Source: Anaerolineae bacterium (lineage in GTDB: Bacteria > Chloroflexota > Anaerolineae > JAAEKA01). Taken from it: a DNA stretch of 64,000 bases. The position numbers and the translations under genes are program-made. Positions 25,447 to 63,326 of this stretch are shown in pieces (the stretch's first letter is position 1; every line of letters begins with the position of its first letter). Where the stretch lies: assembly GCA_049294015.1 (NCBI GenBank), contig JBAQCH010000024.1, positions 62,226 through 126,225 on the forward strand, in the 5' to 3' direction. The notes beneath the pieces were generated by a model that was not told the DNA's origin, made no database searches, and worked only from the letters and a program-made list of their open reading frames with translations.

Positions 25447-25456
25447 TTTGATCTCC

Positions 25457-26986: not shown

Positions 26987-26994
26987 ACTGTTCT

Positions 26995-27177
26995 CCAGTT
27001 CGTACTCGGTAGTGGTAAATTGGTAGATTGGTGGATTGGTCGGTTGGCAGGGTTGGCGGGGTTGGCAGAGAGGTAGATTGGCAGAGTAGTCAAAGCAATC
27101 AGAAAAGCTGCATTTTGACTGACCCAACATGCCTCCGGCGTACCAATTTACCAATCTACCAATCTACCAGTTCCTTG
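26995..27177 (+). repeat. GGTAGATTGG / CCAATCTACC-type palindromic heptamer-repeat element
   Basis: ggtagattggtggattggtcggttggcagggttggcggggttggcagagaggtagattgg ... ccaatttaccaatctaccaatctacc; intergenic between sufB and sufC. Confidence 0.55.
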
Positions 27178-28008
27178 CTAAACCGCCACCAACTCGGCCT
27201 CGCCAAACTCGTCCTTGACCCACTGGTAGCCCTGGGACTCCAGTTGATGGGCCAGCTCCGCGCCGCCGCTGATGACCACGCGGCCGTTGTAGAAAACGTG
27301 GACGAAGTCGGGCTGGACGTAGTTGAGGATGCGCTGATAGTGGGTGATCAGCAGAATGCCCAGGCCGGGCCCGGCCAGCTTGTTGACGCCGTCGGAGACC
27401 ACGCGCAGCGCGTCGATGTCCAGGCCGCTGTCGGTCTCGTCCATGATCGCGATCTTGGGCTGAAGCATGGCCATCTGCAGGATCTCGGCCCGCTTCTTTT
27501 CGCCGCCGCTGAAGCCCTCGTTGAGGTAGCGCTTGGCGAAGCTGCGATCGACGTTATACTCATCCATCTTGTCCAGCAGCTCTTTGCGGAAGTCGCGCAT
27601 CGGCATCAGGTTGGAGCCGACGACGCCCGACTTGCTGCCGCCGTTGCTGGCCGCGGCCTGGTCGGTGTAGCCGCGCACGTTGCTGACCGCCGTGCGCAGG
27701 AAGTTGGCCATGCTGACGCCCGGCACAGCCACTGGATACTGGAAGGCCAGGAAAAGGCCGCGCCGCGCCCGCTCGTTGGGCTCCAGCTCCAGGATGCTTT
27801 CGCCGTCCAGCAGGATGTCGCCGCCGGTGACGGTGTAATGGGGATGGCCCATGATCGCGTAGGAGAGAGTGCTCTTGCCAGAGCCGTTGGGGCCCATCAG
27901 CGCATGCACTTCGCCCTGGCGGATTGTCAGATTGACGCCCTTCAGCACTTCTTTTTCGCCGTCGTTGACGGTTACGTGCAGGTCTCGGATCACTAGCTCG
28001 CTGGTCAT
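27178..28008 (-). CDS. sufC: Fe-S cluster assembly ATPase SufC
   Basis: Walker [13 protein letters not shown] signature LSGGEKKR, Walker [13 protein letters not shown]. Confidence 0.9.
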
Positions 28009-28110
28009 AATGCTTTCAGAAACTCCTTGGTGCGTTGTTTTGTCTTTGCGACAGCGGGCAGACATCTACTTGCTCAAGCTGGCTGCCCTCAGTTATCAGG
28101 GTCGATACGG

Positions 28111-39602: not shown

Positions 39603-42346
<2,744 letters not shown>

Positions 42347-42350
<4 letters not shown>

Positions 42351-42589
42351 GCGGGTACTAATTCCAGCGCATGGACACCCTCTTCTGCTAGCCAGGCAGC
42401 ATACTGCAATGCCTGGCTAATATCCTGTGGCTCCAAGTAAGGGTAATCCTCGATGATTTGCTGTACTGTCATCCCACTGGCAACAAGGTTGACGATCAGC
42501 GAGACCGTAATGCGCATACCGCGGATACATGCCCTGCCACCCATCACCTGCGGATCGAATGTGATTCTGTTGAATCCAAACATGCTCAA
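42347..42589 (-). CDS. DUF433-domain protein (putative antitoxin-like)
   Basis: ..GGRACIRGMRITVSLIV...QIIEDYPYLEPQDI.. DUF433 signature. Confidence 0.65.
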
Positions 42590-42742
42590 CTCCTGTCTTT
42601 CACCCGGAACTTCAAGTCGGTTGCTAGCTAGACTGCGCTAATCGGGTAGCACACATTGTAACACAGTTCTCCAAATGCACCATCTGGAAGGTTCGCGCTC
42701 GCCAGGCGGGTCTCCGAACCGAGCCAACCTAAGATTCGATTG

Positions 42743-43234
42743 CTAAACGCTTCCTAACAGCCACTGCGCCAACGAACGAATTTCGATGGTCATACCATCC
42801 TGTTGGATTGGCTCGGCATTGACCTCGGTCAGAATCAGCCCGCGTTCGAGTCCCAAAGCGCTCATGCCATCGCGTAGTACGCGTATTTTCCGCTCTCGAA
42901 CGCCGCTTTGATCAAGGTTCTGAGCAACCTGGACCAGCATGCGCTGCTCAGGCAGGTAGAAATCGACTTCGAAGCCACCAGGCGTTGTGTAATAGAAGAT
43001 CTCTTGCGTTTGGCGCCGCAACGCCAGGAAGATCACGTTTTAGAGTAAGCGCCCGCTGTTGGGCGAGAACGCGTGGGGCAGGGGCGCTGCGCGCGTTAGC
43101 TGCGCCAACTGATCGCGTGGAATGCCCGTGTCACGCTCCCAGAATCCCTGGGCCTGCTCCAGCAGCATGGCGCGAATCTGGTCTCTCGACCATCTGTTTC
43201 GCCAATAGTTTTCATTCATAATGAAATGATACAC
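42743..43234 (-). pseudogene. Truncated AAA+ ATPase of the DUF4143 family (N- and C-terminal fragments in the same frame, separated by a stop; ATPase core missing)
   Basis: The C-terminal fragment ..EIFYYTTPGGFEVDFYL.. matches the DUF4143 C-terminal motif; the total length of about 160 aa compares with roughly 400 aa expected. Confidence 0.45.
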
Positions 43235-43274
43235 CTAAATGATTTCATTGACAATGAAATCATTTAGGTGTATC
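43228..43274 (+). repeat. 47-bp perfect AT-rich palindrome (23-bp arms gatacacctaaatgatttcattg / caatgaaatcatttaggtgtatc, 1-nt centre)
   Basis: Read directly from the sequence; overlaps the stop of the permease gene and the start of the truncated ATPase. Confidence 0.8.
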
Positions 43275-45485
43275 GTCCTCAAGCGCATACAACGTGCTCC
43301 CGCTGACCACGTACAGCCGTCCGTCAGCCAGCGCGCCGCCTACCAGCGCGCCGCCTGGCTCGATGGCCAGTGTCCAGGTCGCCGAGGGCCGGTCCACCAG
43401 GTAGCCGCTGCACTCCAGGATGCCGCCGCGCTGTGTCCGGCCGTTGCTGCCGCAGGCGTAGACCGTGCCATCCCTGCCCAGCGCCACCAGCCGGCCGGTT
43501 CCGCCCGACCAGGGATAGTCCACCACATTCAGCGTGCTGCCGTCTGCCTCCGCCCACAGCAACTTGGCGAAATCAAAAGGGCTGCCGTAGAACACCCAGT
43601 AGCGGCCGCCGGGGGCGACGCCGGCCGCGGCCGGGACGCGCTGGCCCAGCGCCAGGTTCAACAGATCGATCTGCCCTTGCGGCTGAAGCTGCACCGCCTC
43701 GCCGTCGATGACGGCCGCTGCGAAGTTGTCCTGCCCGGCCAGATAGAGCTTTCCATCGGCGCCCACCAGGTAACGATCCAGGATGGCGTCGCTGGACTTG
43801 ATCAGGGTCCGGCCCGTAGCAGCATCCAGCACGATGTCCTCGAATAAGACGTAGCGGCCGTCGGGCGAAAGCAGCGGCTGCGGCGAGACGTAGCTGTAGG
43901 TCGGCAGGTTGACCCGCCAGGCCAGCTCGCCAGTGGGCCGCACCGCTACGAGGCTGCGCTCGGTGGCGAAATAGGCCACGCCGTTGGCGTCCACCACCGG
44001 GCTGGACAACGGCGCGGCGCCGGGATCAGCCCGCACCGCCCCGACCAGATTGGCCTCCGAATCCAGCACATAGAGCACCCCCTCGTCGTCCAGGACATAG
44101 ATGTAGCCCTCGGCGCTCAAGGCTGGCGCGCCAAACGGCTGGCCGGGCAACCTGGCCTTCCATAGCGCCGTTCCATCCGGGTTGACGGCGACCAAACGGC
44201 CATCCTTGGCCGTGACGTAGAGCGTGCCGTCGGCCGCGACCGCTGGTCCGCCGGCCCAGCCGCTCGCGTCCGCCAGTGTCCAGGCGACTTGCGGCTGGCG
44301 CGGCCCCTGGGTGTTGGCCCAGTAGGCGCCTTGGGCGTCATGGCGCGCAGCCGCCCACAGATGCCCGCCGGGCGTCGTGATGGCCGAGGCGGCTGACGGG
44401 ATGGCTGTGGCGCGCAGCAGGGCCGCCGTACTGCCGGCCAGCAGCAGCAAGAGCGCGCCCACACCCAGCGCCGTCGTCAAGCCGCCCCGTCCCATCGCCA
44501 GCCGCTCCAGCGCCATCTCGTTGAAGGCGCTGCTGGCGCGCTCGACGGTTGCGCCCAGCCGGCCTTGACGCCGCCGCGCGCGCGTCGGGTCAGCCTGGCG
44601 GCGCAGCCCCTCGCCTAGCACGTTGAAGGTTAGGACCAGCAGAAATACCACCGCGCCGGTCGTCAGCAGCAGCCAGGGGTGGCGCTGGGCGATGGCCGCG
44701 CCGCTGGCCAGCATCTGGCCCAACTCTGGCTGGCCTGCGGTGCGCACGGCCGTCCAGTCCCCCAATGGAATCCAGATAGCGTTGACGAAGTAGCCCAGAA
44801 AGCCCAGCCCGGCCGTCACCAGCAGCGCGGTGCTGATCTCCAGCGGCAGCAGAATCCATACCACCGGCAGCACGTGCGGCAGCACGTGCTTCACCACCGC
44901 GCCCGCGCCGGTGGCGCCCAGCGCATGCGCAGCCTCGATGTAGGGCTGGGTCTTGATCAGGCTGGTCCGGTCGTGCAGCACGCGCGCAGCCTCGGCCCAG
45001 CCGGTGAGGCATAGTCCCAGGACGAAAGCCCACACGCCCCACTGCGGACCAAAGGCGGCCACCAGACAGAGCGCCACCAGGAGCACCGGAATGGAGACGG
45101 CGATGGCGGTGATTCCTTCCAGCAGCCGGCTGACGCGGCCGGCGCCCCAGCCCGACGCTACGCCGATCGACAGGCCTAGCAGCAGCCGCACGGCCGCGGC
45201 CACCAGCACCAGGATCAGCGTGGGACGCAGGGCCCACAGGATCTGGCTGAGGGTGTCCCGTCCCAAAGGGTCCGCGCCCAGGGGATAGCCGGGCATCTGC
45301 CCCGGCCGGAAGGGCGGCTTGACGAAGGCCAGGGTTTCCGGGTGCTGGACGATGTAGACCGGCTTGACCGGGTCGTGCGGGGCGAACTGTGGGCCCAGCC
45401 AGGCCAGCAGGGTGATGAGCAGCAGCAGGGCCAGCCCAATCCACAGCGGCCAGTTGACCGGCGCTTTCCAGGCGCGCTCAGCCAT
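43260..45485 (-). CDS. ABC transporter permease (DppC/OppC-like) fused to a C-terminal extracytoplasmic PQQ-like beta-propeller domain
   Basis: N-terminal ~310 aa permease with EAA-like loop (..IEAAHALGATGAGAVVKHVLPHV..); then an extra TM and ~430 aa with repeated (D)G.LYV....G.L.A(V/L) beta-propeller blades. Confidence 0.75.
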   Translation of the reverse strand: MAERAWKAPVNWPLWIGLALLLLITLLAWLGPQFAPHDPVKPVYIVQHPETLAFVKPPFRPGQMPGYPLGADPLGRDTLSQILWALRPTLILVLVAAAVRLLLGLSIGVASGWGAGRVSRLLEGITAIAVSIPVLLVALCLVAAFGPQWGVWAFVLGLCLTGWAEAARVLHDRTSLIKTQPYIEAAHALGATGAGAVVKHVLPHVLPVVWILLPLEISTALLVTAGLGFLGYFVNAIWIPLGDWTAVRTAGQPELGQMLASGAAIAQRHPWLLLTTGAVVFLLVLTFNVLGEGLRRQADPTRARRRQGRLGATVERASSAFNEMALERLAMGRGGLTTALGVGALLLLLAGSTAALLRATAIPSAASAITTPGGHLWAAARHDAQGAYWANTQGPRQPQVAWTLADASGWAGGPAVAADGTLYVTAKDGRLVAVNPDGTALWKARLPGQPFGAPALSAEGYIYVLDDEGVLYVLDSEANLVGAVRADPGAAPLSSPVVDANGVAYFATERSLVAVRPTGELAWRVNLPTYSYVSPQPLLSPDGRYVLFEDIVLDAATGRTLIKSSDAILDRYLVGADGKLYLAGQDNFAAAVIDGEAVQLQPQGQIDLLNLALGQRVPAAAGVAPGGRYWVFYGSPFDFAKLLWAEADGSTLNVVDYPWSGGTGRLVALGRDGTVYACGSNGRTQRGGILECSGYLVDRPSATWTLAIEPGGALVGGALADGRLYVVSGSTLYALEDDTPK

Positions 45486-46467
45486 GGTCGCCTGCCTCTA
45501 GCGACATGCGCAGCCGCGGATCGACGGCGTACACTGCCAGCGAGCTGGCTAAGTCGGCTAACAGAAAGACCAGGCCGAAGAGGGTCAGCAGCGCGGCCAC
45601 CAGCTCAGGGTGCAGGAAGGTACGCGCGGCGCCGGTCAGGCCGCCGGCCGAGGCCACAGTGGGCGGCAAGAGCGTGCTGGCCAGCAGCTTGCCCAGCCCC
45701 GGCCAGCCAAACAGCCATTCCACCAGGATCAGCTCGCCCACCAACAGACGCAGCGCTGCTGCCGCCACCAGAATCACCGCCGGTAGAACGTTGCGCAGGG
45801 CATGTTTGCTGCGAATGGTGCGCAGGGGAATGCCCAGACTGCGCGCCGTCACCACGTGCTGCTTGCCCAGCTCGTCCACCAGGACGCCAGCCGTGGTCTG
45901 GGCGATCTGCATGGTCGGGCGGATGGACAGCGCCAGCACCGGCAGCAGCAGGTGCAGGTCGAGGCCGTAGCCGTTCAGCGGCAGCAGGAGACGGGCGTTC
46001 TCGCCCGCGCGCAGATAGAGGGCCAGCACCAGGGCGATGCCCACGGCGCCGATGAAGAAGCTGGGCGAGGCCAGCCCCAGCGAGGCCAGCGGCGGCAGCC
46101 ACGGCCTCAGCCCAGGCGGGTTGGCGCGCACCGCGGCCAGCCCCAACAGCAAGCCCACTGCCAAACTGAGCAGGAAGGCCACACCCGCCAGCGTCAGGCT
46201 GGCGCCGGCCGCCGCGGCGACGACCGTCTGCACCGGTTCGGCGCTGCCGCCCACCAGGGGCATCTGCCCCCAATCGCCGGTCAGCACGTGGCCCAGGTAG
46301 ACGCGGTACAGCGACAGGATCGGCACGGCGGCGTCCACGCCGCTGCCGAAGGGGTTCTGGGCTTGCTGCACGCGCTGCGCCAGCAGCGCGTAGCTGAACG
46401 CGACGAAGTTGATCGCCAACAGCGCGATGGGCAAGAGGAGCAGGCGGCGCACGATGAAGCGAGTCAT
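45478..46467 (-). CDS. ABC transporter permease (DppB/OppB-like)
   Basis: ..MTRFIVRRLLLLPIALLAINFVAF.. N-terminus and six TM segments; start chosen at the internal Met to avoid overlap. Confidence 0.8.
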   Translation of the reverse strand: MTRFIVRRLLLLPIALLAINFVAFSYALLAQRVQQAQNPFGSGVDAAVPILSLYRVYLGHVLTGDWGQMPLVGGSAEPVQTVVAAAAGASLTLAGVAFLLSLAVGLLLGLAAVRANPPGLRPWLPPLASLGLASPSFFIGAVGIALVLALYLRAGENARLLLPLNGYGLDLHLLLPVLALSIRPTMQIAQTTAGVLVDELGKQHVVTARSLGIPLRTIRSKHALRNVLPAVILVAAAALRLLVGELILVEWLFGWPGLGKLLASTLLPPTVASAGGLTGAARTFLHPELVAALLTLFGLVFLLADLASSLAVYAVDPRLRMSLEAGDHG

Positions 46468-46471
46468 AGCA

Positions 46472-47368
46472 TCACGCTCTGCCCAGCGCTGTGACAAACT
46501 CAGCAGGCATGGCTATCGCCGCGCTCGTCTGCATATCGACGCAGCCCCAGCGCGCATGGCTCTGCGCCAGCAGTTCCCCATCGGCCGCCCGCACGACGGT
46601 GGTGTGCCGCACAGCGCCTTCCTCGGTCAACTCTGACAGCCAGGTGGAAATGATCAATTCGTCCCCCGGTAGGGCCGGCTGGCGGTATTCGATGCGCAGT
46701 TGACGGGTGGCCAGGTCCAAGCCTTCGGCCGTCATGCGGCGGGCTGGCCAGCCGCACAGGCGAGCAGCCAGGCGGGCGGCGTCCTCGATGTAGTCGCCGT
46801 AGGACGCGTTGTTGACGTGGCCGACGCTGTCCAGGTCGCGCCATTGCACCGGCCGGCGCAGGGTGACGACACCGCTGGCTGGCGGCAGCGCGGCCGGGAA
46901 GCGTTCGCGCTCCTGCGCCTCGCCTGGCTGGCCAGCAGGGAAGAAGGCGGCGATCACCTCGTCGGGAATCGCGGCCGGCCGGCCTGTGTCCCGGTCGAGA
47001 AAGACCCAGTCGGTGTGGGCCCGGGCCACCAGCCGCTCCTCGCTTGGGCTGTTGTGAGCGTAGCCACTCAGGCCGCTCCCCCACAGCTCGTAGGCGCGTC
47101 GCGAGCGCACGCGGCGAAAGTCGGCCACCCACGTGCGCACGCGCACCTGGTCGCCGTAGCGCAGCGGCGCGATGAAGTCCACGGCGCTCTCGTGGATCAG
47201 CCAGATGCGCCGCATCGCCTGGTAGCGGTCGTCCCAGTAGCCGGCTGCGGCCGAGGCCTCGAACGCGGCCTCCTGCATGTAGCGCAGGTAGCAGGCGTCG
47301 CGCACGATCTGGTTGACGTCGCATTCGTGATAGTTGACGCGTTGGAGCAGTTCTGTGAGGAGGGGCAT
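46472..47368 (-). CDS. Tandem hotdog-fold acyl-CoA thioesterase (4HBT/YbgC-like, two domains)
   Basis: Two repeats of the ..HVNN..Y...E.A.. hotdog motif (CDVNQIVRDACYLRYMQEAAFE and DSVGHVNNASYGDYIEDAAR). Confidence 0.7.
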   Translation of the reverse strand: MPLLTELLQRVNYHECDVNQIVRDACYLRYMQEAAFEASAAAGYWDDRYQAMRRIWLIHESAVDFIAPLRYGDQVRVRTWVADFRRVRSRRAYELWGSGLSGYAHNSPSEERLVARAHTDWVFLDRDTGRPAAIPDEVIAAFFPAGQPGEAQERERFPAALPPASGVVTLRRPVQWRDLDSVGHVNNASYGDYIEDAARLAARLCGWPARRMTAEGLDLATRQLRIEYRQPALPGDELIISTWLSELTEEGAVRHTTVVRAADGELLAQSHARWGCVDMQTSAAIAMPAEFVTALGRA

Positions 47369-47447
47369 GGACTCCGCCTTAGTTGCCGGGCACTTGCACT
47401 GGCGCTGGTATGTAGAGGTCAGGCCTTCAAGTGTCCGGCAACTGTCA

Positions 47448-47801
47448 CTAGGCTTCGAAGCGCTGGATCTCCAGCAGGTAGCCGTTGGGGTCGCGCAGGA
47501 AACAGTGATAGATGTTGTATTTCGGGTTGAGCGCGGGCGGATGCTCGAAGATGACGCCCCGCTCGGCCAGCCGAGCGTGCCAGCCGTCTACGTCCTCGGT
47601 CACCAACGTGATGATGATCCCGGACGGCTGCTGGGGGGCATTGGCGCGCTGGCAGAAGCCCAGCAGGCCCTCCTGGCTGACCTGGTAGATGCGACAGTCG
47701 CCCTGGTCTACGGCCAGCGGCAGGCCCAGCACCTGCTCGTAGAAGCGGGCCGTGGCAGGGAGGTCAGCGGTGTAAAGAAAGGTGATCTGTTGGTCGAACA
47801 T
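47448..47801 (-). CDS. VOC/glyoxalase-bleomycin resistance family protein
   Basis: 117 aa; ..ATARFYEQVLGL...GYLLEI.. fold motif. Confidence 0.8.
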   Translation of the reverse strand: MFDQQITFLYTADLPATARFYEQVLGLPLAVDQGDCRIYQVSQEGLLGFCQRANAPQQPSGIIITLVTEDVDGWHARLAERGVIFEHPPALNPKYNIYHCFLRDPNGYLLEIQRFEA

Positions 47802-47864
47802 AGGTTGCTGCTGATCTTGCGCAGACCCTGCGGGTTTCCGAAATTCGCAGGGTCTTTCGGGATT

Positions 47865-49196
47865 TCAAGAAGCCAGCCCGGCCAGCCCGCGCGGCTCGCG
47901 CACCCAGCGGTGCAGCGCGACCAGGCCGGCCAGACAAAACAGTGCGCTGACGGCAAAGAGCGTATCGTAGCTGCGGGTGGCCAGCCAGGCGCCGATCAGC
48001 GGGCTGGCCATGCCCATCAGGCCCAGCGCAGTGTTGATCAGGCCGGTGTAGGTGGGGCGCAGGTCAGCCGGCGAGAACTCCAGCGTGATCATGGTGCCGG
48101 AAACCACGGCGGCGCCTGTGCCCAGGCCCAGCAGGACGAAGACGACGTAGTACCATGCCGGGGTTGGCGCCTGCCAGGCCAGCAGATAGGCGGCAGTCAG
48201 CAGCGCGCAGCTCAGCTCCAGCGGCAGCTTGTGGCCTTTGCGATCGGCCAAGAAGCCCGCGGCGGCATTGGCGACGGTCTGGCCGATCAACAGCGCCAGC
48301 GTGTACAGGCCGACAACGCCATCGGACACCTGCCAACGAGATACCGCCGCCACCGTCAGGAAACCGGCTCCCATGCCGCCCAGCACCAGCAGCAAACGGG
48401 CCAGGATGAAGCGGCGAAAGTTGCCATCGCTGCGCAAAATCTGTGGCAGTCCGGCCCAGAACTGGCTGTTGCTTTGCCGCGGAGCAGTCACCGCTTGCTC
48501 TGGCTCGCGGGCGAAGGCCAGGAAGGCCCAACTGAGGGTGATGAAGAAAGCTGCCAGCGTGAAGGTGGCCACGAAGTTGGTGGGGAAGACCAGCGTGGCC
48601 AGCAGCCAGGCGCTGAAGGTTGCGCCCAGCGCGCCTGTGCCATTGCCCACGAAGGTGGTGATGCCAAAAAAGCGGCCGCGGCGATCGACTGGAAAGATAC
48701 GGGCCACCAGGTCCTGCCAGGCTGTGGCCACGACGCCCGCGCCCACGGCATGGCCTGCGTAGCCCAGGAAGAAGAGCACCAGAGCCAGCGTTGGCGACTC
48801 GACTGCCAGCAGAGCAGCCAAAGGAAGCAGCCACAGCGGCAGCCGTTCGGTGAAGAAGCCCAGGTTGACCACGACGGGTTTGCGGCGCGGCAGGCGCTGG
48901 ACGGTGTTGGCGGTGAAGAGCTGCGGCAGGAACCAGCCGCTGTTGGCGATCACCGCGATCAAGCCAATGGCGAGCTGGCTGCTGGTCAGCTTGCTGACGA
49001 ACAGCGGCACGATGGTGGCGCTGGACATGAAGCTCAAGCCCAGCCAGAAAGTTGCGCCGTCCAGCAGGTTGAAGGCGAAGTTCCAGGGATAGTTGCGTTC
49101 GACCTCGCGGGCCACATCGAGCGCACTACGCGCGGGCGGGGCAGGGTCGGCGCGCAGCAGGCGGCGCATGGCGGATCGAACGTAGAGGTTGAACAT
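47865..49196 (-). CDS. MFS transporter
   Basis: 12 predicted TM segments; ..[10 protein letters not shown].. loop motif between TM2 and TM3. Confidence 0.75.
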
Positions 49197-49199
49197 AGG

Positions 49200-49320
49200 A
49201 TCGTGGAACGAGGGGCGGGCAGCGTGAAACGTAAAACGTGACCAGAGAGCAGTCTCGGTCACGTTTCACGGTTCACGCCGTACGGCGGACGCGTCTTGGG
49301 AAGCAGCGCGCAGAAGATCC
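49200..49320 (+). repeat. Palindromic element gtgaaacgtaaaacgtgacc-N13-ggtcacgtttcacggttcacg, sharing GTCACGTT/AACGTGAC half-sites with the REP at 58.6 kb
   Basis: Intergenic between the MFS transporter and FadD genes. Confidence 0.5.
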
Positions 49321-49322
49321 GT

Positions 49323-51017
49323 CTACTTGCTCTTTTCCAGTTCCTCTTTGACCAGCTCACGCCGCAGCACTTTACCGATGGTGCTCTTGGGCAGCTCGGA
49401 ACGGAACTCGACGTAGCGCGGCACCTTGTAGCCGGTCAACTTTTCCTTGCAGAAGTTCTGGATTTCGTCGGCTGTGGCCGCCACGCCAGGCTGCAGGACG
49501 ATCCAGGCCTTGACGGCCTCGGTGGTGCGCGCGTCGGGGATGCCAGCCACGGCAACTTCCATCACCTTGGGATGGGTGGCCAGTACTTCTTCCACCTCGC
49601 GCGGCCAGACCTGGAAGCCAGAGACTTTGACCACGTCCTTCTTGCGGTCGACGATGAAGATGTAGCCGTCCTCGTCCATGTAGCCCAGGTCGCCGGTGAA
49701 CAGCTCGCCGGCCTTGAGCATTTCGGCCGTGGCCTCGGGGCGCTGCCAGTAGCCGCGCATCAATTGCGGCGCCCGGATGACGATCTCGCCCACGTTGCCT
49801 TCGCCTAAGGGCATGTTTTTGCTGTCATCCGCCACATCGGCGATGCGTACGAAGACGTCGGGGACCGGCATACCGATGGAGCCAACCTTGTACTTGCCTT
49901 CGATAGGCGTACAACAGATCGCCATCATCGACTCGGTCAGGGCGTAGCCCTCGACGATGCGGCTGCCGGTCAGCTTCTCGAAGCTTTCCTTGGTGTCTTG
50001 CAGCAGCGCCGACGCGCCGGAGATGCACAGCTTGATCGAGGTCAGGTCAACCTTGCCCTCCTTGACCAGGGGGTGGTTGAGCATGGCGTTGAACATGGTG
50101 GGCACCGAGGGGAAGAAGGTGGCCTTGGTCTTCTCGATGGTCTTCATCACGTCGGGGATGTCGCGCGGGTTGGGCACCAGCGCCATGCCGCCCCGGGCGG
50201 TGAAGGCGGCCATCTGCACGCCGGCGTTGGCGAAGACGTGGAAGAGCGGCAGCGCGGTCAGGAAGACGTCGTCCCACTCGTGCAGGATGTTCTGGAACCA
50301 GGCGAAGATCTGCTTGCCCGACATCACCAGTCCTTCGTGCGAGCCTACGGCAGCCTTGGACAGACCCGTGGTGCCGCCGGTGAAGAGGATGATCGCGTTG
50401 TCGCTGGGAGTCACTGTCACGCTGGGCCGGCCGGAGCCCTTGTTCTGCTTCAGCAGATCCTTGAACCAGAAGTCGCCTGGCTGCAAGTCAATGCGATGGC
50501 CTTCTTTCTTCTCCTTGGCCAGGGTGAAGAGCAGGCGTATCACGAAAGGAAGATACTCCCTGACGCCGGCGGCAATGACACGCTTGACCTTGGTCTTGCT
50601 CTGCACGTTCTTGATCTTGTTGTAGAACGTGGTCATCGCTACGACCGTTTCGGCGCCGCACTCGTTGAGTGCGTGCTCCATCTCATACTCGGTGTAGAGG
50701 GGGTTGATGCAAGCCGCCACCGCGCCGGCTTTCCAAACACCGAACTCCGCAATGACAAATTGCGGAATGTTGGGCATCACCAGCGCGACGCGGTCGCCCT
50801 TCTTGATGCCCATCGCGATCAGCGCGTTGGCGAATTGATCGCTCAATCGGTCCAACTGGCTATAGCTGATCTTGGTGCCCTTGAAATACAGGGCCATGTG
50901 ATTGGGGCGCAAGCTGACTGTCTCGCGCACGACGTCGATCATGGTCTGTTGCAGGTAGGGCTGCAATGTGGCCGGCACGCCCTTGTCGTAGTTGTTCAAC
51001 CAGGGTTTGTTGTCCAT
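49323..51017 (-). CDS. Long-chain fatty acid--CoA ligase (AMP-binding, FadD-like)
   Basis: AMP-binding motifs ..LFTGGTTGLSKAAV.. and ..GELFTGDLGYMDEDGYIFIVDRKKD..; start refined to MDNKPWLNNYDKGVP. Confidence 0.85.
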   Translation of the reverse strand: MDNKPWLNNYDKGVPATLQPYLQQTMIDVVRETVSLRPNHMALYFKGTKISYSQLDRLSDQFANALIAMGIKKGDRVALVMPNIPQFVIAEFGVWKAGAVAACINPLYTEYEMEHALNECGAETVVAMTTFYNKIKNVQSKTKVKRVIAAGVREYLPFVIRLLFTLAKEKKEGHRIDLQPGDFWFKDLLKQNKGSGRPSVTVTPSDNAIILFTGGTTGLSKAAVGSHEGLVMSGKQIFAWFQNILHEWDDVFLTALPLFHVFANAGVQMAAFTARGGMALVPNPRDIPDVMKTIEKTKATFFPSVPTMFNAMLNHPLVKEGKVDLTSIKLCISGASALLQDTKESFEKLTGSRIVEGYALTESMMAICCTPIEGKYKVGSIGMPVPDVFVRIADVADDSKNMPLGEGNVGEIVIRAPQLMRGYWQRPEATAEMLKAGELFTGDLGYMDEDGYIFIVDRKKDVVKVSGFQVWPREVEEVLATHPKVMEVAVAGIPDARTTEAVKAWIVLQPGVAATADEIQNFCKEKLTGYKVPRYVEFRSELPKSTIGKVLRRELVKEELEKSK

Positions 51018-51249
51018 GAAACCGTTTTTTCCTCCTAAGCGCCAAGGCTGATTTGGTTGATTTGACACCCCTGAGTTGGTCAGAGATGCATGCGACGGTG
51101 AAATGGGCAGAGGGTAAGCCCGCGTTGCCAAGACAGCGACCAGCTGCGCAGCGTTCCTGCTCAACTATACCAGAACCAACAGCGGTTTGTCAATACTCAA
51201 CCTGAGATCGCGGTATTCGGGACATCGTCGATCGGCAGGCTCGCAGTGG

Positions 51250-52440
51250 CTATACGGACTTTCTGCGACCTGACACCTCCACCCAGACAGCGATCAGAAC
51301 TCCGACGATCAGTCCGGCTACGGCTGCGGTAGCCAACAGCCCTAACAAAGGTGCGCGCACGTGGGCTACGATGGGGTCCAGACTGCCCACAACGGTCAGC
51401 AGGCTGGGATCGGCGCGCTCTTGAAGCTGTAGCTCATTGACCTTGCGGAACATTATCTGATAGAGATCTCTGGCCTGGTTGCGCTCCCGGAAGATCAGCT
51501 CGAAATCGTACCAGTCGCTAGCCAATGTATCCCGGAGCTGGCTGGCCTCTTCTTCCAGCGCAGTGGCTGTGGCCTGCAAGGCGTTTTCTTCTTGGCTCAG
51601 CAGCTCCAGCAGCGCGGCTGGGGTGTCCAGGTTGGCGCGTGCGATCTCTGGGGAGATCAGCTCACGCTGGCTGAGCACCGGCCCTGCCAACAGTTCCCAC
51701 GGCAATTGCGTCAAATCGGTGTCGGCCGTCGCTTCTGCCAACTTGCCCCGCAGCAGGCGGATGTTCTGCAGATCCACCAGATAATCGGCTAAGATCTCGG
51801 TGACCTGATTGGTCTGCTGCAAGTTGATGCTGGGCTTCATGATCTCGTCAGGAATCGCGCTGTGGCTGTAGATGCCCGTGCGCGACCGGGTCTCAGCCAG
51901 CGCAGTCTCCATCTGCAACATGGTTGCCTCCAGGTCCTGAAGCTCTGCCTGGAAAACAGCCAGATCCTTGGCTGCCCCGTAGACATCGCGCGCCGAGGCG
52001 ATCAGCGCTTGGGTCCAGGCGCGCGCGTAGGCGGCGGCCCGCTCGGCGTCGTCAGCGGTGGCGGTGACGACGATGGTATTGCCGTCGCCTGCACGCACGG
52101 CCACGGCGCTGGTCAACGCTTGGGGTGTGATGGCCGGCTCCAACCCGGCCGCTTCCAACGTCTTGGCGGCGGCCTGGGCGATTTCATCGCTGCGCGCAAT
52201 CGCCAGTATCTCGCGCTGAAAATCGCGGCGCTGGTCGGTAATCGCGGTGATCTCGTTGGCAAAGCGCCACTGGTAACGCGGCGACTGCACCAGCAGGGTA
52301 TTGCTGGCTTCGTAAGGCCGGCCCTGAGCCAGGCCGATACCTGCGGCAACGACCAGAGCCAAGGCCATGCACAGCAGGATGATCCACCAGCGGCGGCGCA
52401 ACGCGGCCTTGAAAAGTGAGAAATCGATTTCGCTGGACAT
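51250..52440 (-). CDS. Polysaccharide chain-length determinant-like (Wzz/PCP/GumC-type) protein, two TM segments flanking a coiled-coil periplasmic domain
   Basis: N-terminal TM after a basic stretch (RRRWWIILLCMALALVVAAGI), long coiled-coil, C-terminal TM (LLATAAVAGLIVGVLIAVWV); no kinase domain. Confidence 0.5.
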   Translation of the reverse strand: MSSEIDFSLFKAALRRRWWIILLCMALALVVAAGIGLAQGRPYEASNTLLVQSPRYQWRFANEITAITDQRRDFQREILAIARSDEIAQAAAKTLEAAGLEPAITPQALTSAVAVRAGDGNTIVVTATADDAERAAAYARAWTQALIASARDVYGAAKDLAVFQAELQDLEATMLQMETALAETRSRTGIYSHSAIPDEIMKPSINLQQTNQVTEILADYLVDLQNIRLLRGKLAEATADTDLTQLPWELLAGPVLSQRELISPEIARANLDTPAALLELLSQEENALQATATALEEEASQLRDTLASDWYDFELIFRERNQARDLYQIMFRKVNELQLQERADPSLLTVVGSLDPIVAHVRAPLLGLLATAAVAGLIVGVLIAVWVEVSGRRKSV

Positions 52441-57974: not shown

Positions 57975-58045
57975 GCCAATCGTCGCGTAGGTCCGGCTAC
58001 CAGCCGGACAGCACGCCTGTCACGTTGATAACGTGACCTACGCGC
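57975..58045 (+). repeat. REP-unit copy (ggtccggctaccagccggac + GTCACGTTGATAACGTGAC palindrome) on the 3' side of the RAYT gene
   Basis: Same unit as the array at 58590-59160. Confidence 0.65.
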
Positions 58046-58562
58046 AACAGTCTTCGCCAAACCCAATCAACGATTCGGGCAGGTTCCAACCCCACTCGTC
58101 AGGATAGACGCCTCTTGTCTTCCACTGCAGAAAGCTGCTGTGTTGCCAGTCTTCCGGCTTATTGACATAGCCATGCTTGACCGGGTTGTAGTGGATGTAG
58201 TGCAAATGGTTGGCGAAATCATCTTCGTCCCGGATGATGTGATCCCAATAGCGCTTCTGCCAAAACTTCATCGATCCTTGCACACCAATGGTTGTTTTGT
58301 ACGCCTTGGTGAAGTTTGGCTTGATCGAGTGCATGATTTGGGTGTTGGTGACACCATGCATCGGCTTGAACAACAGGTGAAAATGGTCGGGAAGGAAGAC
58401 GAAAGCCAGCATCGCGAAAGGATACAACCGCTGCGCTTCGTGTATGATCTCACGCAGAAGATCGAGGTGTTGGATGTTTCGAAACACAGGAACGCGTCCC
58501 TCAACTACTTGGGTGATGAAGACAATCGAGTCGGGTACGTAATAGCGGCGTATGTTGGTCAT
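58038..58562 (-). CDS. REP-associated tyrosine transposase (RAYT; IS200/IS605 TnpA-like HuH enzyme)
   Basis: HuH motif DHFHLLF, catalytic Tyr region ..RYWDHIIRDEDDFANHLHYIHYNPVKHG..; flanked on both sides by REP palindromes; start refined to MTNIRRYY. Confidence 0.8.
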   Translation of the reverse strand: MTNIRRYYVPDSIVFITQVVEGRVPVFRNIQHLDLLREIIHEAQRLYPFAMLAFVFLPDHFHLLFKPMHGVTNTQIMHSIKPNFTKAYKTTIGVQGSMKFWQKRYWDHIIRDEDDFANHLHYIHYNPVKHGYVNKPEDWQHSSFLQWKTRGVYPDEWGWNLPESLIGFGEDCCA

Positions 58563-58589
58563 TGGTATCCCTCCTTGGAAAACGTGTTG

Positions 58590-59160
58590 CGAACGCATGT
58601 CACGTTGATAACGTGACCTACGCCACATCCTTGGTAGGTCCGGCTACCAGCCGGACAGAGCGCCCGTCACGTTGATAACGTGACCTACGCGCATCGTTGG
58701 TAGGTCCGGCTACCAGCCGGACAGAGCGCCCGTCACGTTGATAACGTGACCTACGCCGCATCGTTGCGCAGGTCCGGCTACCAGCCGGACAGAGCGCCCG
58801 TCACGTTGATAACGTGACCTACGCGCATCGTTGGTAGGTCCGGCTACCAGCCGGACGGCACGCCTGTCACGTTGGTAACGTGACCTACGCCGCATCGTCG
58901 CGTAGGTCCGGCTACCAGCCGGACAGCACGCCTGTCACGTTGGTAACGTGACCTACGCCGCATCGTCGCGTAGGTCCGGCTACCAGCCGGACAGCACGCA
59001 TGTCACGTTGATAACGTGACCTACGCGCATTGTTGATAGGTCCGGCTATCAGCCAGACAGCACGCATGTCACGTTGATAACGTGACCTACGCGCATTGTT
59101 GGTAGGTCCGGCTACCAGCCGGACAGCACGCCTGTCACGTTGCTAACGTGACTACTGCTG
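58590..59160 (+). repeat. Tandem array of about 9 REP units of roughly 66 bp; each unit has palindrome GTCACGTT-GAT-AACGTGAC and a second hairpin TCCGGCT-ACC-AGCCGGA (REPIN/BIME-like)
   Basis: Directly visible periodicity of about 66 bp; units differ by a few substitutions (gataacg/ggtaacg/gctaacg). Confidence 0.85.
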
Positions 59161-59297: not shown

Positions 59298-62200
59298 CTA
59301 CTGCGCTGGCGTAATGCGCACGTCGTCTACGTAGCGGGTCGAGGTGGTGTTCGCATCGCCGTTCCATAGATCAAGGGACGCCGACAGGCTGGTTGCCACA
59401 GCCAGTGCAGCTGCATCGCTAGGCACATGGCTGCCGATCATGGCGCCATTCAAATAGAAGCGCAGTTGTGCCGTCGTCGGGACGATTTCTATTCGGGCGA
59501 CATGCCAGGTATTATACGGCACCGAGACGCTGGCCGTTTGATATTCCATCCTCCAACCTGTTCCCTCTGGCACCAGGATCCCGCAACTAAAGTCTGCGTT
59601 CTGGTTGCCTTGGCTCCCGTTCAGACCACATAGTGCCGTCCAGCCGTGGTTGTTCACGAACGCATGCACTTTGAGTTGGACTGATGAGTGACCACCGAGA
59701 CGATCATCGCTGATTTTCATGCGCCCTGCGATGTACCACGTTTGTTGTGGCGAGCGCGGCAGTCGTTGCCGTGTCTGAAGTTGAGCACCGCTACCCTGGG
59801 GTGAAGGAGTCGTGCTCCAGAGCACCATGGCGCCGTTCTGCTGCGCAGCGTGGAAGGGAGTGTCGCCTTCCCATGACCACAATAACGGGTTCCAGGTCCC
59901 GTCATAGGCGGGATTGTCGAAGCTGTCGTAGATATCGGTCAAGGGATCGTAGCCCTTAACCGAGATCGGCAGGAAAGTCCGATACCAGGCGTTGACGTAG
60001 GCCGGTCGGGTCAGCGTGTGGCTGTCCATGCCGTCGCCCACCGTCAGCCGCACGGTGTAAGCGCCGGCCGCTGAGTATGTGTGCGTCGGGTTGGCGGCCG
60101 TGCTGCTCTGGCCGTCGCCGAAGTCCCACTGCGTGCTGGCGACGTCGCCGGCCGAGGCGTTGCTGAAGCTGACGGCCAGCGGCGGCCGGCCGGTGAGCGG
60201 CGTGGCGCTGAAGTCAGCGGTGACGGTCTTCTGCCAGATCTGGTTGCCGACGCCATCGGTAGACGTGCCGATGAAGAGTCGGTTGCCGAACACCACCACC
60301 GAATTGCCCCAGTTAGGGCCGGTGTTGTTGCCGTTGCCGAAGCCGGCCGGGGCATCCTGCTCCCATTGCTGACCGTTGGCCGAGCGCCAGACCTGCGTGC
60401 CCTCGCCAGATCGGTTGCTGGTCAGGGCATACATGCGACCGCGCAGCACTGGCAGCGCCATGATGCGGCGATTCCAGCCATCGCCAAAGCCGCCGGTCAT
60501 CATCTGGCTCCAGTCGCTGCCGTTGCAGACCGAGCAGCGCCAGAGTTGGGCCCCTGTGGTCCAGTTGGTGGTGCCGGCATAGAGCAAGCCACCAAAGGAC
60601 GCCAACGACGCAACCCCAGCGTTGTCGATGTCGCCAAAGCCACCGGCGTTGACCAGGGTCCAGGTTGTGCCGTTGCTGCTGCGCCAGACCTGCCCGCCAG
60701 CCGGCTCATTGAACGTGCCTGCGTACAACGCACCGTTGTGTTCCTGAAAGGTCATAGCGCCTTGATTACCTGCATCGCCCAGGCCCCCGATGACGACGCG
60801 CGTCCAACTGCCTGCATTGCCCGTGCTGCTGCGCCAGATTTCGCCGCCGGTTGCAGTGTTGAGCGTGCTGGCATAGAGCTGGCCGCCGAAGACCACCATC
60901 CGGAAAATCTCCAGGTTGTCCGTATCGCCAAAGCCGCCGTCGGCCACCAGCGACCAGTTGACGCCGTTGGCGCTGCGCCAGACCTGGCCGCCCAAGGTGT
61001 AGCCGTTGTTGCAGTCTGGGTCGCAGGCGTAGTGGCCCGTGCTGGCGTAGAGCTGGCCGTTGAACTCGACCAGATGATCGATCCAGTAGTTCTCACCGCC
61101 CAGGCCGTTGGTCACCACCGCGCTCCAGTCGCCGCCGGCGTTCTGCCGCCAGATCCAGGGCGCATTGTTGTGTGCGCCGCCCGCGTACAGTCGGCCGCCG
61201 AAGGCAGTCAAGCCGCCCAGGAACGACCAGCGCTCGCCAAAGCCGGTGACGTTGACCTGCTTCCAGCCCGGCACGCCCGGGCTGAACTTCTGCACACGGT
61301 GGTTGTCTCTCTCAGCCACGTAGACATTGCCCTCTTTGTCCACCGCCACGTCCACGGCGTCGCGCAGGCCGCCGCTGCTGCTGCTATACACGCCGCCGAT
61401 GGTGGCCAGATACGCGCCAGTGGCGTCGAACACCTGCACCCGGTCGTTCCAGGGATCGGCCACGTAGACGCGGCCGGCGGCGTCGACAGCCACATCCATA
61501 GGAACGATGTGGCCGTTGTCATTGCCAAACACCCCGGTTTCGCCGGCGAAAGTCGTGCAAGCGTAGTCGTTGGCTGACAGCAGGCACTTCTGCACGCGGT
61601 AATTGCTCACGTCAGCCACGTAGACCGCGCCGCTGGCGTCCACGGCCACGCCCCGCGGCCAGCTGAAGTGACGGTTGTCGCTGCCCTGCTCGTCCAGCAC
61701 ACCTAAGGTCATGCGATAGACCCAATGGCGGGTGTAGACCTGGATGCGCTGGTTGCCGTGGTCGACCACGAAGATGTCGCCGGTGGCCGGGCTGACGGCG
61801 ATGCCAACCGGACCCTCGAACTCGTGGTTGCCGACGCCCCACGCGCCAAAGGTGGCGTGATAGCTGCCGTCGGCGTTGAAGATCTGGATACGGTTGTTGG
61901 GCGTGTCGGGCACGTAGGCGCGACCGGCCGTGTCGACGGCGATGCTGCCCTCGGGTCCGGTCCACCACTGGCCGAAGTGGGCGTTATCGTCGCCGTAGAT
62001 GCCGGCTTCGCCCACGGTCCACTGCACCGCGCCGCTGGCATCCAGCTTGAGCAGCCGGTAGCCGCGGTTTTCAGTCACGTAGACGCTGCCATCCGCGCCC
62101 ACGCCGATGCCCCAAGGACTGTTCAAGTGCTGGCCGTCGGTCACGTAAGGCACGCCGCTGACGCCGGCAAAGACGCCCATAGGGCTGCCCGTGCTGCTGA

Positions 62201-63326
62201 ACTTGCGCACAGTAAAGTCGTCCCAAACGTTGATGTAGACGTTGCCAGCGCTGTCTGTGGCCACGTCTGACGGCCAGGCCAGCCCGTTGATCAGAATGCT
62301 GCAACTGCCGGTGGTGGTGCAGCGCTTGATGCGGCCGTTGCCGCTGTCGGCGATGTAGATGCTGTTGCCCGCAACATCCCGGCCCAGGCCATAGGCCCAG
62401 TTCAGTTGGTCATCTGCGCCGCCCGCCATACCCGTGCCGTGGAAGGTCGAACAGGTCCATGCGCCGCTGAAGGTGCAGCGCTGCACGCGGGAGTTCTCCA
62501 CGTCGGCCACGTAGAGCCGGTTGCTGCTGTCGATAGCGATCTCAGATGGATGGTTGAAGTGGCTGTTATCGCTGCCCGGTTGGCCGGTCACGCCGATGGT
62601 CGCCTGGTAGGTCAGGCTGGTGCCAGACACGGTGAACACCTGCACGCGATGGTTGTTGTCGTCAGCCACGAACAGCCGGCCTGTGCTGTCGAAGGCGATG
62701 CCGCGCGGCTGGTCGAAGCGGTTGTTGCCGCTGCCTGAGTTCCAGGGCTCATCGTCGGGATAGCGCAGAAGCAGGTTGCCGGCCGGGTCGAAGGCCTTGA
62801 CCGCGTGGCCGATGGTCACCCAGATGTTGCCGGCGGCGTCCGCTGTCACGCCCTTGGGCCAGGCCAGGAACCGGTCGTGGTGCCAGGGCTGCCCTGCCGC
62901 GCCGACGATCAGAGTGTTGGCGCCGCTGGCGTTGTAGCGCAGCAAGCGATGCCCCGACTCTTCGACCACGTAGAGCGAGTTGTTATTATCGATGAACAAG
63001 CCATTGGGATCGTTGAGGTGCTGCGCGTCGGCCAGGTAAGGGGTCTCGGTCTGGCCGAAGGTCTGCACGTGGCGAAAGCTCAGGCCTGGCTGGCCGATGG
63101 GCACGGCGGGACTGGCTGCCGCGTCCGGCTGGTCACCGGCAGGACGTTGCAGCCACGGCTGCGGCCCTTGCTGTGCTGGCTCTGGGGCTGGTCTGGCCGA
63201 TGGAACAGCCGGCCGGCTGCTGTCCGGCGGCTGCGGCCTTTGCGCGGCTGCGCTGAGCACGGAGCCGGCCAGCAGCGTCACGGCCAGCACAAGGCTGAAG
63301 AGGCGATTGAGATGTCTGCGTTGCAT
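59298..63326 (-). CDS. Secreted 1342-aa NHL-repeat beta-propeller protein with PKD domain and C-terminal concanavalin/LamG-like domain
   Basis: Signal peptide MQRRHLNRLFSLVLAVTLLAGSVLSAAAQ; more than 10 NHL-type repeats (..NHRVQVF.., ..NNRIQIF.., ..GNQRIQVY.., ..DNHRVQKF..); PKD domain ..TQWDFGDGQSSTAANPTHTYSAAGAYTVRLTV... The track ORF begins upstream at a GTG; the Met plus signal peptide is the preferred start. Confidence 0.8.
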   Translation of the reverse strand: MQRRHLNRLFSLVLAVTLLAGSVLSAAAQRPQPPDSSRPAVPSARPAPEPAQQGPQPWLQRPAGDQPDAAASPAVPIGQPGLSFRHVQTFGQTETPYLADAQHLNDPNGLFIDNNNSLYVVEESGHRLLRYNASGANTLIVGAAGQPWHHDRFLAWPKGVTADAAGNIWVTIGHAVKAFDPAGNLLLRYPDDEPWNSGSGNNRFDQPRGIAFDSTGRLFVADDNNHRVQVFTVSGTSLTYQATIGVTGQPGSDNSHFNHPSEIAIDSSNRLYVADVENSRVQRCTFSGAWTCSTFHGTGMAGGADDQLNWAYGLGRDVAGNSIYIADSGNGRIKRCTTTGSCSILINGLAWPSDVATDSAGNVYINVWDDFTVRKFSSTGSPMGVFAGVSGVPYVTDGQHLNSPWGIGVGADGSVYVTENRGYRLLKLDASGAVQWTVGEAGIYGDDNAHFGQWWTGPEGSIAVDTAGRAYVPDTPNNRIQIFNADGSYHATFGAWGVGNHEFEGPVGIAVSPATGDIFVVDHGNQRIQVYTRHWVYRMTLGVLDEQGSDNRHFSWPRGVAVDASGAVYVADVSNYRVQKCLLSANDYACTTFAGETGVFGNDNGHIVPMDVAVDAAGRVYVADPWNDRVQVFDATGAYLATIGGVYSSSSGGLRDAVDVAVDKEGNVYVAERDNHRVQKFSPGVPGWKQVNVTGFGERWSFLGGLTAFGGRLYAGGAHNNAPWIWRQNAGGDWSAVVTNGLGGENYWIDHLVEFNGQLYASTGHYACDPDCNNGYTLGGQVWRSANGVNWSLVADGGFGDTDNLEIFRMVVFGGQLYASTLNTATGGEIWRSSTGNAGSWTRVVIGGLGDAGNQGAMTFQEHNGALYAGTFNEPAGGQVWRSSNGTTWTLVNAGGFGDIDNAGVASLASFGGLLYAGTTNWTTGAQLWRCSVCNGSDWSQMMTGGFGDGWNRRIMALPVLRGRMYALTSNRSGEGTQVWRSANGQQWEQDAPAGFGNGNNTGPNWGNSVVVFGNRLFIGTSTDGVGNQIWQKTVTADFSATPLTGRPPLAVSFSNASAGDVASTQWDFGDGQSSTAANPTHTYSAAGAYTVRLTVGDGMDSHTLTRPAYVNAWYRTFLPISVKGYDPLTDIYDSFDNPAYDGTWNPLLWSWEGDTPFHAAQQNGAMVLWSTTPSPQGSGAQLQTRQRLPRSPQQTWYIAGRMKISDDRLGGHSSVQLKVHAFVNNHGWTALCGLNGSQGNQNADFSCGILVPEGTGWRMEYQTASVSVPYNTWHVARIEIVPTTAQLRFYLNGAMIGSHVPSDAAALAVATSLSASLDLWNGDANTTSTRYVDDVRITPAQ

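Follow-up and report, generated by a model that had tools for sequence, protein, structure and literature searches.

Type I importers of the ATP-binding cassette (ABC) class are thought to need a binding protein of two lobes, whose docking and closure on the ligand set off ATP hydrolysis. Within the PepT family of such importers, the usual substrates are peptides, wall-derived peptides and metal chelates. GlnPQ and OpuA of Lactococcus provide a precedent for tethering the receptor where an outer membrane is missing and, to our knowledge, the only known built-in receptors use the same two-lobed fold. The system considered here is a pair of overlapping minus-strand genes within a 64,000-nt stretch of DNA (hereafter, the window) from an Anaerolineae bacterium of the phylum Chloroflexota (assembly GCA_049294015.1, contig JBAQCH010000024.1, positions 62,226 to 126,225). 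The upstream gene encodes an OppB/DppB-type permease (the B subunit), and the downstream gene encodes, in one chain, a DppC/OppC-type permease (the C subunit), a further transmembrane (TM) helix and an eight-bladed propeller. Together the two genes encode the B plus C heterodimer core of a type I importer of the Opp/Dpp/Nik type, specific to the Chloroflexota and mainly to the Anaerolineae. The PepT-family core of this permease–propeller architecture is familiar; the accessory domain and the gene organization are new, and a literature search found no paper on a permease–propeller fusion in the Chloroflexota.

As in the Opp/Dpp/Nik systems (TC 3.A.1.5; Escherichia coli DppBCDF and OppBCDF, Mycobacterium tuberculosis OppABCD), the core is a pair of B and C subunits with a BPD_transp_1 domain and six TM helices each. 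Also common to both are the EAA loops and the fold, the template modelling score (TM-score) being 0.81–0.87; an OppC-type N-terminal TM helix is probable here, OppC_N falling slightly below its cut-off. In contrast to those systems, the window C subunit adds an extra TM helix and an outer propeller of approximately 380 amino acids, ATPase and substrate-binding protein (SBP) genes are missing in cis from the window, with none attributable to the module in any of 82 loci, the 'scoop' of the B subunit is 9–12 residues shorter, both subunits have conserved TM5–TM6 insertions, and NCBIfam scores fall far under their cut-offs. The window fusion and GlnPQ/OpuA both link an extracytoplasmic module covalently to the permease of a type I importer; however, that module is a two-lobed Venus-flytrap domain in GlnPQ/OpuA and a C-terminal eight-bladed propeller, placed after an additional TM helix, in the fusion. 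Among related propellers, mycobacterial Rv3035 (approximately 16 % sequence identity) is a free-standing partner of an arabinofuranosyltransferase rather than of an ABC translocator. YxaL is a secreted protein and BamB an outer-membrane assembly lipoprotein, and no membrane transporter is fused to either. Three zf-HC2 anti-sigma factors (P0243, P0264 and P0266) carry the same full ectodomain, including its diverged blades 5–8, the LPTYSY motif and a Cys pair, facing outward on a one-TM anchor; where the fusion has a permease, they have a cytoplasmic anti-sigma zinc finger, with an extracytoplasmic function (ECF) sigma gene as its partner.

With a different fold joined to the permease, a trimmed scoop and no companion SBP or ATPase gene, the module is a candidate for an alternative way to feed or control an ABC importer. 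Were the propeller a receptor, ABC import would have a third means of substrate delivery, alongside free binding proteins and the S-components of energy-coupling factor transporters, and the sensing module could be moved into anti-sigma signalling as well. Were it only to anchor the transporter, the family would still represent an uncharacterised and widespread accessory-domain architecture. Anaerolineae are abundant in sludge, sediments and soils yet poorly cultured, and the family could explain part of the substrate scavenging by the filamentous members of the class.

The fusion gene, its B partner and their predicted structure

The features of the two genes, with the evidence for each, are as follows.

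45478..46467, minus strand: OppB/DppB-type permease, 329 amino acids from the ATG at 46467 (MTRFIVRRLL); Pfam, OppB/DppB match, locus pairing
46327..46374, minus strand: B residues 32–47, shortened scoop region from TM1 to the conserved Y..Y helix; OppB/DppB alignment
45778..45861, minus strand: B residues 203–230, cytoplasmic coupling (EAA-type) loop; Y...AR..G conservation, alignment to OppB/DppB 'RTARAKG'
43260..45485, minus strand: fusion gene, 741 amino acids, DppC/OppC-type permease, linker, TM7 and eight-bladed propeller; frame, Pfam, homologues, AlphaFold2 (AF2), Foldseek
44604..45485, minus strand: six-TM DppC/OppC-type permease domain, residues 1–294; sequence comparison with OppC/DppC, Foldseek
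44868..44975, minus strand: EAA coupling loop of the C subunit, residues 171–206, YIEAAHALG...HVLPHVLP; conservation, OppC alignment
44736..44783, minus strand: family-specific beta-hairpin insertion in the TM5–TM6 outer loop, residues 235–250; alignment gap, AF2 strands, conservation
44487..44603, minus strand: cytoplasmic linker, residues 295–333, with 10 Lys/Arg, poorly conserved and of low model confidence; hydropathy/charge, AF2, conservation
44406..44486, minus strand: extra TM helix (TM7), residues 334–360, returning the chain to the outside; hydropathy peak at 339–357, AF2 helix at 334–359
43263..44405, minus strand: extracytoplasmic domain, residues 361–741, a conserved pre-blade segment (361–396) followed by eight blades (397–736)
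43228..43274, minus strand: perfect 20-bp AT-rich inverted repeat, GATACACCTAAATGATTTCA ... TGAAATCATTTAGGTGTATC, covering the stop of the fusion gene and the four codons before it

The fusion gene is a single, uninterrupted frame of 741 amino acids plus stop. A first-pass annotation, made from the DNA letters alone, had described a DppC-like permease, an extra TM helix and a propeller in one chain, and had named a misassembly of two genes at about position 44550 as one way in which this might be wrong. Inspection of the frame near 44550 revealed neither a stop nor a frameshift, the fusion is conserved in other assemblies, and the proposed architecture is borne out by the frame, Pfam, hydropathy and AF2. 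The Pfam domains are BPD_transp_1 at residues 104–297 (E 3.8e-15) and PQQ_2 at residues 399–528 (E 2.9e-13), with OppC_N on residues 15–40 slightly below its cut-off (22.1 vs 23.9 bits), as it is also weak in relatives. In a sequence search against solved structures, the first ~300 residues matched E. coli OppC (E 2.9e-23), E. coli DppC (E 1e-22) and M. tuberculosis OppC. The propeller does follow the extra helix; however, the length of about 430 amino acids first given to it was too long, because the 446 amino acids after TM6 also hold the linker and TM7, and the ectodomain itself is approximately 380 amino acids. At its stop end, the B gene shares 8 nt with the start of the fusion gene, and its product has a BPD_transp_1 domain (E 1.6e-14) and matches the OppB/DppB chains of solved transporters, including E. 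coli and M. tuberculosis OppB. The earlier view that the DppB-like protein and the fusion form a permease pair is upheld.

By its BPD_transp_1 domains in both subunits, six-TM type I importer fold and EAA loops, the pair belongs with the PepT-family permeases. None of the NCBIfam equivalogs (NikC, DppC, OppC, GsiD etc.) reaches its cut-off; the nearest models are the nickel/oligopeptide permeases Opp2C, Opp4C and NikC, each at less than half its cut-off (Opp2C 134.9 of 300 and NikC 128.6 of 358 being the best). Homology does not reveal the substrate. The coupling loops are well kept. In the C subunit, where the loop aligns to the 'FIEAAQVGG' of OppC, all 84 family members have G189 and at least 90 % of them keep E183 and P206; the Y...AR..G loop is at least 85 % conserved among 82 B partners. 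This conservation is the pattern that would be expected from selection for ATPase docking and, being present in both subunits, points to ATPases encoded elsewhere.

Hydropathy and charge divide the fusion into six canonical TM helices, a 39-residue linker (295–333) with 10 Lys/Arg, TM7 at approximately 339–357 and an acidic tail of 378 amino acids. In solved DppBCDF and OppABCD, the C subunit has six TM helices, with a coupling helix on the cytoplasmic side between TM4 and TM5 (PMC12136057). With the C-terminus of a DppC-type subunit inside and one extra helix after it, the propeller tail would thus lie outside. An outside location agrees with three further observations, i.e., that C677 and C691, on adjacent strands of blade 7, are invariant across 84 family members, that surface-type domains (LysM and DUF11/CARDB-type immunoglobulin-like) or further propellers come after the first propeller in longer relatives, and that the same domain forms the outer part of an anti-sigma factor. 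By homology and sequence rules, the propeller is predicted to be extracytoplasmic; the cytoplasmic placement that the first-pass annotation had considered as a possible refutation is not borne out, given the Lys/Arg-rich linker, the extra helix, the Cys pair and the surface-domain variants.

An AF2 model of the fusion, built from 84 family sequences, has a mean predicted local distance difference test (pLDDT) score of 86.7 and a predicted TM-score (pTM) of 0.81, with pLDDT below 50 only at the N-terminal tip and in the linker at 312–332. Within the modelled ectodomain, 32 strands make eight four-stranded blades (397–736) after a conserved segment of ~35 residues; Pfam detects blades 1–3 only, because blades 5–8 have diverged. 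For two similar-sized domains on a low-confidence linker, a pTM of 0.81 indirectly suggests that the propeller is packed at a defined position on the permease. Compared with the PDB by Foldseek, the modelled membrane domain is closest to E. coli DppC (8z1w_B, target TM-score 0.87) and M. tuberculosis OppC (0.81–0.84), and the propeller to the designed protein Cake8, Bacillus YxaL, mycobacterial Rv3035 and BamB, with PQQ (pyrroloquinoline quinone) dehydrogenases matched only in part. The membrane part is the better conserved, with a mean majority-residue frequency of 0.67 vs 0.52 for the ectodomain.

The subunits depart from their solved relatives on the outer side. In E. coli DppBCDF, the scoop motif of the B subunit (residues 32–62, from TM1 to helix alpha-3) reaches into the binding-protein cleft, closing off the loading cavity, and its deletion reduces ATPase activity to about one quarter (PMC12136057). 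The equivalent in the window B subunit is 16 residues, i.e., nine fewer than in E. coli OppB and ~12 fewer than in E. coli DppB and M. tuberculosis OppB by HMMER coordinates, with B residue 48 pairing with OppB residue 57 and B residue 49 with DppB residue 61. The shortening is not confined to the window, as the spacing from R8 to Y54 is 44–47 residues in 72 of 80 family members vs 55 in E. coli OppB. On the C subunit, a 14-residue insertion that is a gap in E. coli DppC and OppC is modelled as a hairpin with strands at 235–240 and 243–248, in which W237 and G250 do not vary and at least 90 % of members keep D242 and R247. The B subunit has an insertion of ~16 residues in its own TM5–TM6 loop relative to M. 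tuberculosis OppB. As judged from these alignments, the outer face of the translocator is remodelled family-wide at the periplasmic gate, where binding proteins engage.

Distribution, gene neighbourhood and reuse of the ectodomain

A search of 5.8 billion proteins returned 369 homologues of the fusion, and the best 120 of these are nearly all full-length fusions of 720–1295 amino acids, with identities from 90 % down to ~34 %; the closest relatives are at 80–90 %. Scanning one genome per species turned up a relative in at least 166 species, so that the fusion, which the first-pass annotation had proposed to look for elsewhere, is found widely, with the B gene as its sole constant companion. 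The 80 loci kept are all from the Chloroflexota and mostly from the class Anaerolineae, including Anaerolineales, Caldilineales, Thermoflexales, Ardenticatenaceae, Villigracilaceae and other metagenome-assembled genomes, and a few assemblies have two copies of the fusion. The extra parts found in relatives are only B–C, TPR, second-propeller, LysM and immunoglobulin-like additions; among the best 120 of the 369 homologues there is no fusion to an ATPase or a binding protein. In P0117/P0119, a B subunit (44 % identity), a C subunit with propeller (39 %) and two LysM domains form one in-frame chain, and this natural chain confirms a joint function of B and C. In a subset of fusions (P0092, P0102, P0115, P0188, P0259 and P0223), the N-terminus is extended by a cytoplasmic TPR region of ~110 amino acids, often with a second propeller after the first, which hints at a cytoplasmic protein partner. 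Four short matches in a search with the propeller alone (P0127, P0154, P0203 and P0250) resembled stand-alone propellers; however, they begin in the cytoplasmic linker or in mid-blade and are most likely fragments of fusions.

The genes that travel with the pair were sought in 82 loci, with up to 10 kb on each side, by clustering all open reading frames (ORFs) of at least 90 amino acids after all-against-all BLASTP and by screening the ORFs for Walker A plus signature motifs of ABC ATPases. The B permease is present in 81 of the 82 loci and, where found, is always directly upstream on the same strand (81 of 81). Besides the B gene, the fusion and its opposite-strand shadow ORFs, no cluster is common to most of the loci. 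The next commonest neighbour is a family-2 glycosyltransferase (13 loci), and the others, i.e., a DNA methylase, ClpB, GNAT, a histidine kinase and STAND-type regulators, represent lineage-local synteny. Neither hydrolase nor regulator genes recur beside the module in this set. ABC-ATPase-like ORFs lie in the flanks of only eight loci, at scattered distances and on both strands. Among those examined, one locus (L068) has a pair of Opp-type ATPase genes with oligo_HPY domains, after which come an SBP_bac_5 gene and the beginning of a further OppB; these were rejected as partners of the module, as they belong to a separate, complete oppDFAB operon with its own SBP, and that SBP is the only one seen, leaving no binding-protein gene attributable to the module in the 82 loci. 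In another (L013), an ATPase gene just downstream was rejected as an Opp-type partner, since its product is without oligo_HPY and is non-Opp, and a 951-amino-acid ORF comes next. The window itself presents the same picture: the only ORF with Walker A and signature motifs in its 64 kb encodes a SufC-like protein (27178–28065, minus strand) within a suf operon, and Pfam finds neither SBP_bac_5 nor oligo_HPY among its 40 largest ORFs. The earlier remark that no ATPase or binding protein is adjacent is accordingly true of the entire window, as judged by those 40 ORFs and the motif scan, and extends to the 82 loci. The missing cis genes are therefore a property of the family and not a quirk of the genome at hand. 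No upstream RNA element or riboswitch was evident, as Rfam has no match in the window.

Public annotations name the family variously as 'peptide/nickel transport system permease', 'BamB' and 'PQQ-binding-like repeat protein', and the labels 'BamB' and 'PQQ-binding' are mis-namings. An eight-bladed propeller with PQQ_2-type repeats is what the ectodomain has in common with BamB, and the 'BamB/PQQ-like' description in the first-pass annotation holds at that level of fold and repeat type; it fails beyond it, the BamB models being far below cut-off. True BamB was rejected on the scores (TIGR03300, 35.9 vs 285.2 bits; PRK11138, 18.7 vs 423) and on the position of the domain at the C-terminus of a polytopic permease rather than in a lipoprotein. 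A PQQ-dependent dehydrogenase was also rejected, the ectodomain having ~380 amino acids vs ~560, without the 550–600 amino acids plus cofactor/metal site of that class, and target TM-scores of 0.44–0.55. The Chloroflexota lineage concerned is generally regarded as being without a classical, periplasm-enclosing outer membrane; on that view a BamB function is implausible and there is a reason to tether the domain. YxaL, Rv3035 and BamB, the solved propellers closest to the ectodomain, are non-catalytic scaffolds for binding or protein docking and not receptors for small ligands. Rv3035 forms a stable heterodimer with FecB, a protein of SBP fold, in which the ligand site of FecB is left open (PMC13041763). 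Since Rv3035 docks an SBP-fold protein, the propeller of the fusion could serve to dock a binding protein encoded elsewhere instead of standing in for one.

When the ectodomain alone was used in a profile-free search of 1.84 billion representative sequences, the matches were of two kinds. The first were giant multi-propeller surface proteins, matched repeatedly by blades 1–3 only; the second, which matched the whole ectodomain in one stretch, were the ABC fusions plus P0243. The latter, a protein of 496 amino acids, combines a zf-HC2 anti-sigma zinc finger and a single TM helix with that eight-blade domain, with 39 % identity over all eight blades and with the LPTYSY..PRLS.DG motif, the Cys pair and GGAL retained. 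The gene for P0243 overlaps the end of an ECF sigma gene, an arrangement given by the following pair.

L083, 5417-7491, plus strand: ECF sigma gene, its end overlapped by a zf-HC2 anti-sigma gene with a fusion-type propeller

Upstream of the sigma/anti-sigma pair are genes for an HtrA-like protease and DnaJ, and downstream of it are those for a histidine kinase and its paired response regulator. The full-length anti-sigma versions found number three (those named above), and their next nearest relatives are the ABC fusions, with the window protein first. Presence of one ectodomain in both an ABC fusion and an anti-sigma factor argues for an autonomous, outward-facing module for binding or sensing; on the sequence evidence, it is a portable module that evolution has placed in two different membrane devices.

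Possible roles of the propeller

We give about even weight to a PepT-family importer core that is energised in trans, with the propeller tethered at a co-adapted outer face for capture or docking. Power would come from OppD/F-type ATPases that are encoded elsewhere and may be shared with a canonical Opp operon, and the propeller would sit on the remodelled outer face of the translocator. This could take either of two forms. As an adaptor, the propeller may hold a partner, such as an SBP-fold lipoprotein or a surface hydrolase or other enzyme, over the channel entrance, a tentative proposal but the likelier of the two. As a receptor, it would bind the cargo itself and pass it to the co-evolved translocator, amounting to a type I importer that is independent of a binding protein; we regard this form as unlikely. 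The short scoop, the insertions in both subunits and the reuse of the ectodomain in an anti-sigma factor are consistent with a changed partner at the outer face. The first-pass annotation had suggested that the propeller might take the place of the binding protein or couple transport to surface sensing, and both stand as hypotheses. Several points weigh against a capture or docking role. No ATPase partner for the module was identified within 10 kb on either side in the 82 loci, nor does any neighbouring gene in the loci examined hint at a substrate. The absence of an SBP gene in cis does not prove its absence in trans, and orphan OppA-type genes are common. Propellers also do not open and close like a clamp, the motion by which a type I importer is normally told that its receptor is 'loaded'. 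The scoop is shortened, not deleted, the conserved positions of the ectodomain are mainly structural (Gly, Trp and Pro) with no obvious ligand pocket, and the placement of the propeller over the channel is putative.

The module might instead be an ordinary Opp/Dpp importer whose ATPases and SBP_bac_5 protein, free or lipid-anchored, are encoded in trans, with a propeller whose only part is to bind a polymer or to anchor or position the transporter in the septum, the sheath or the wall. Such a role, which we hold to be rather doubtful but deserving of weight, would suit the wall- and surface-binding modules (two LysM, DUF11/CARDB) appended after the propeller in variants, the resemblance of the regular blades to those of giant multi-propeller surface proteins, the chiefly structural character of the conserved ectodomain residues, and a transporter core that seems intact, with its DppC TM-score of 0.87 and its EAA loops kept. 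It does not, however, account for the fact that the short scoop and the TM5–TM6 insertions with their invariant residues sit exactly where binding proteins engage or for the binding-protein gene attributable to the module in none of 82 loci, and the high pTM would favour a fixed arrangement of propeller and permease over a loose tether. A device for sensing or mechanotransmission, in which the propeller senses an envelope or extracellular cue and gates the translocator or, in the way that FtsEX acts on wall hydrolases, the ATP cycle moves the propeller and so controls an extracellular partner, seems improbable. That the same ectodomain acts in an ECF anti-sigma factor near HtrA-like and DnaJ genes speaks for it, as do the envelope-biogenesis complexes that the closest solved propellers serve (Rv3035–FecB–AftB and BamB), the N-terminal cytoplasmic TPR of some members and the LysM of some variants; yet the fold is that of a type I importer and not the MacB/FtsX type known for mechanotransmission, neither a hydrolase nor a regulator gene is conserved beside the module, and the anti-sigma version is rare, at three full-length sequences, and appears derived. 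Finally, we see next to no likelihood that the fusion is an artefact (misassembly, read-through or a decaying pseudogene) or a true BamB or PQQ dehydrogenase. The last four codons and stop do lie within a 20-bp palindrome, and the C-terminus is unlike that of the 90 %-identical relative P0002, so that the extreme 3' end may have been remodelled. However, the frame is uninterrupted, hundreds of independent assemblies have the fusion down to ~34 % identity, AF2 confidence is high across both domains and the BamB equivalog scores 35.9 bits vs 285; the intact frame, the conserved fusion, AF2, Foldseek and the NCBIfam scores together rule out this group of explanations.

Other features of the window

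The residues in which the fusion differs from P0002 at its C-terminus are DDTPK, and the inverted repeat that covers its end (43228–43274) is probably a terminator or an insertion scar. Beyond the repeat, an apparent insertion (41976–43215, minus strand) separates the fusion gene from the downstream DNA methylase; in the close relatives L004–L007, the methylase begins 75–163 nt after the fusion gene. The insertion contains the remnants of an ATPase-like gene, i.e., a 59-amino-acid N-terminal piece and then an ORF (42743–43036) without a Pfam match, which we tentatively take to be DUF4143/AAA_14, as well as a DUF433 plus DUF5615 toxin–antitoxin-like pair (42347–42589 and 41976–42350). On the other side of the module, a gene for an acyl-ACP-thioesterase-like double hotdog protein (46472–47368, minus strand) ends 4 nt before the B start codon; further upstream on the minus strand are genes for a major facilitator superfamily transporter (47865–49262), an AMP-binding acyl-CoA-ligase-like enzyme (49323–51164) and a Wzz-like protein (51250–52440). 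This set (46472–52440) is not conserved beside the module in the other genomes of the 82 loci.

A defence island occupies positions 1–15627, where a type I restriction–modification system (hsdM, 1–2070; hsdS, 2920–4359; hsdR, 12334–15627) is split by three genes, encoding a 1182-amino-acid ORF (4356–7904, plus strand), a GmrSD-type endonuclease (8188–10293) and a Schlafen/AlbA_2–HATPase_c_4 protein (10381–12033). The GC content is 0.51 at 4–8 kb vs ~0.63 elsewhere in the window. The 1182-amino-acid ORF has no Pfam family at E ≤ 0.001 and may be a candidate novel defence protein. The suf iron–sulfur cluster operon lies at 21283–28065 (minus strand) and encodes a SufS-like aminotransferase, a rhodanese, SufD, SufB and SufC. 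Toward the other end of the window, a 1413-amino-acid protein (59298–63539, minus strand) with many NHL repeats and PKD domains resembles a large surface protein of a different propeller type, and its gene adjoins an IS200-like Y1 transposase gene (58038–58628, minus strand).

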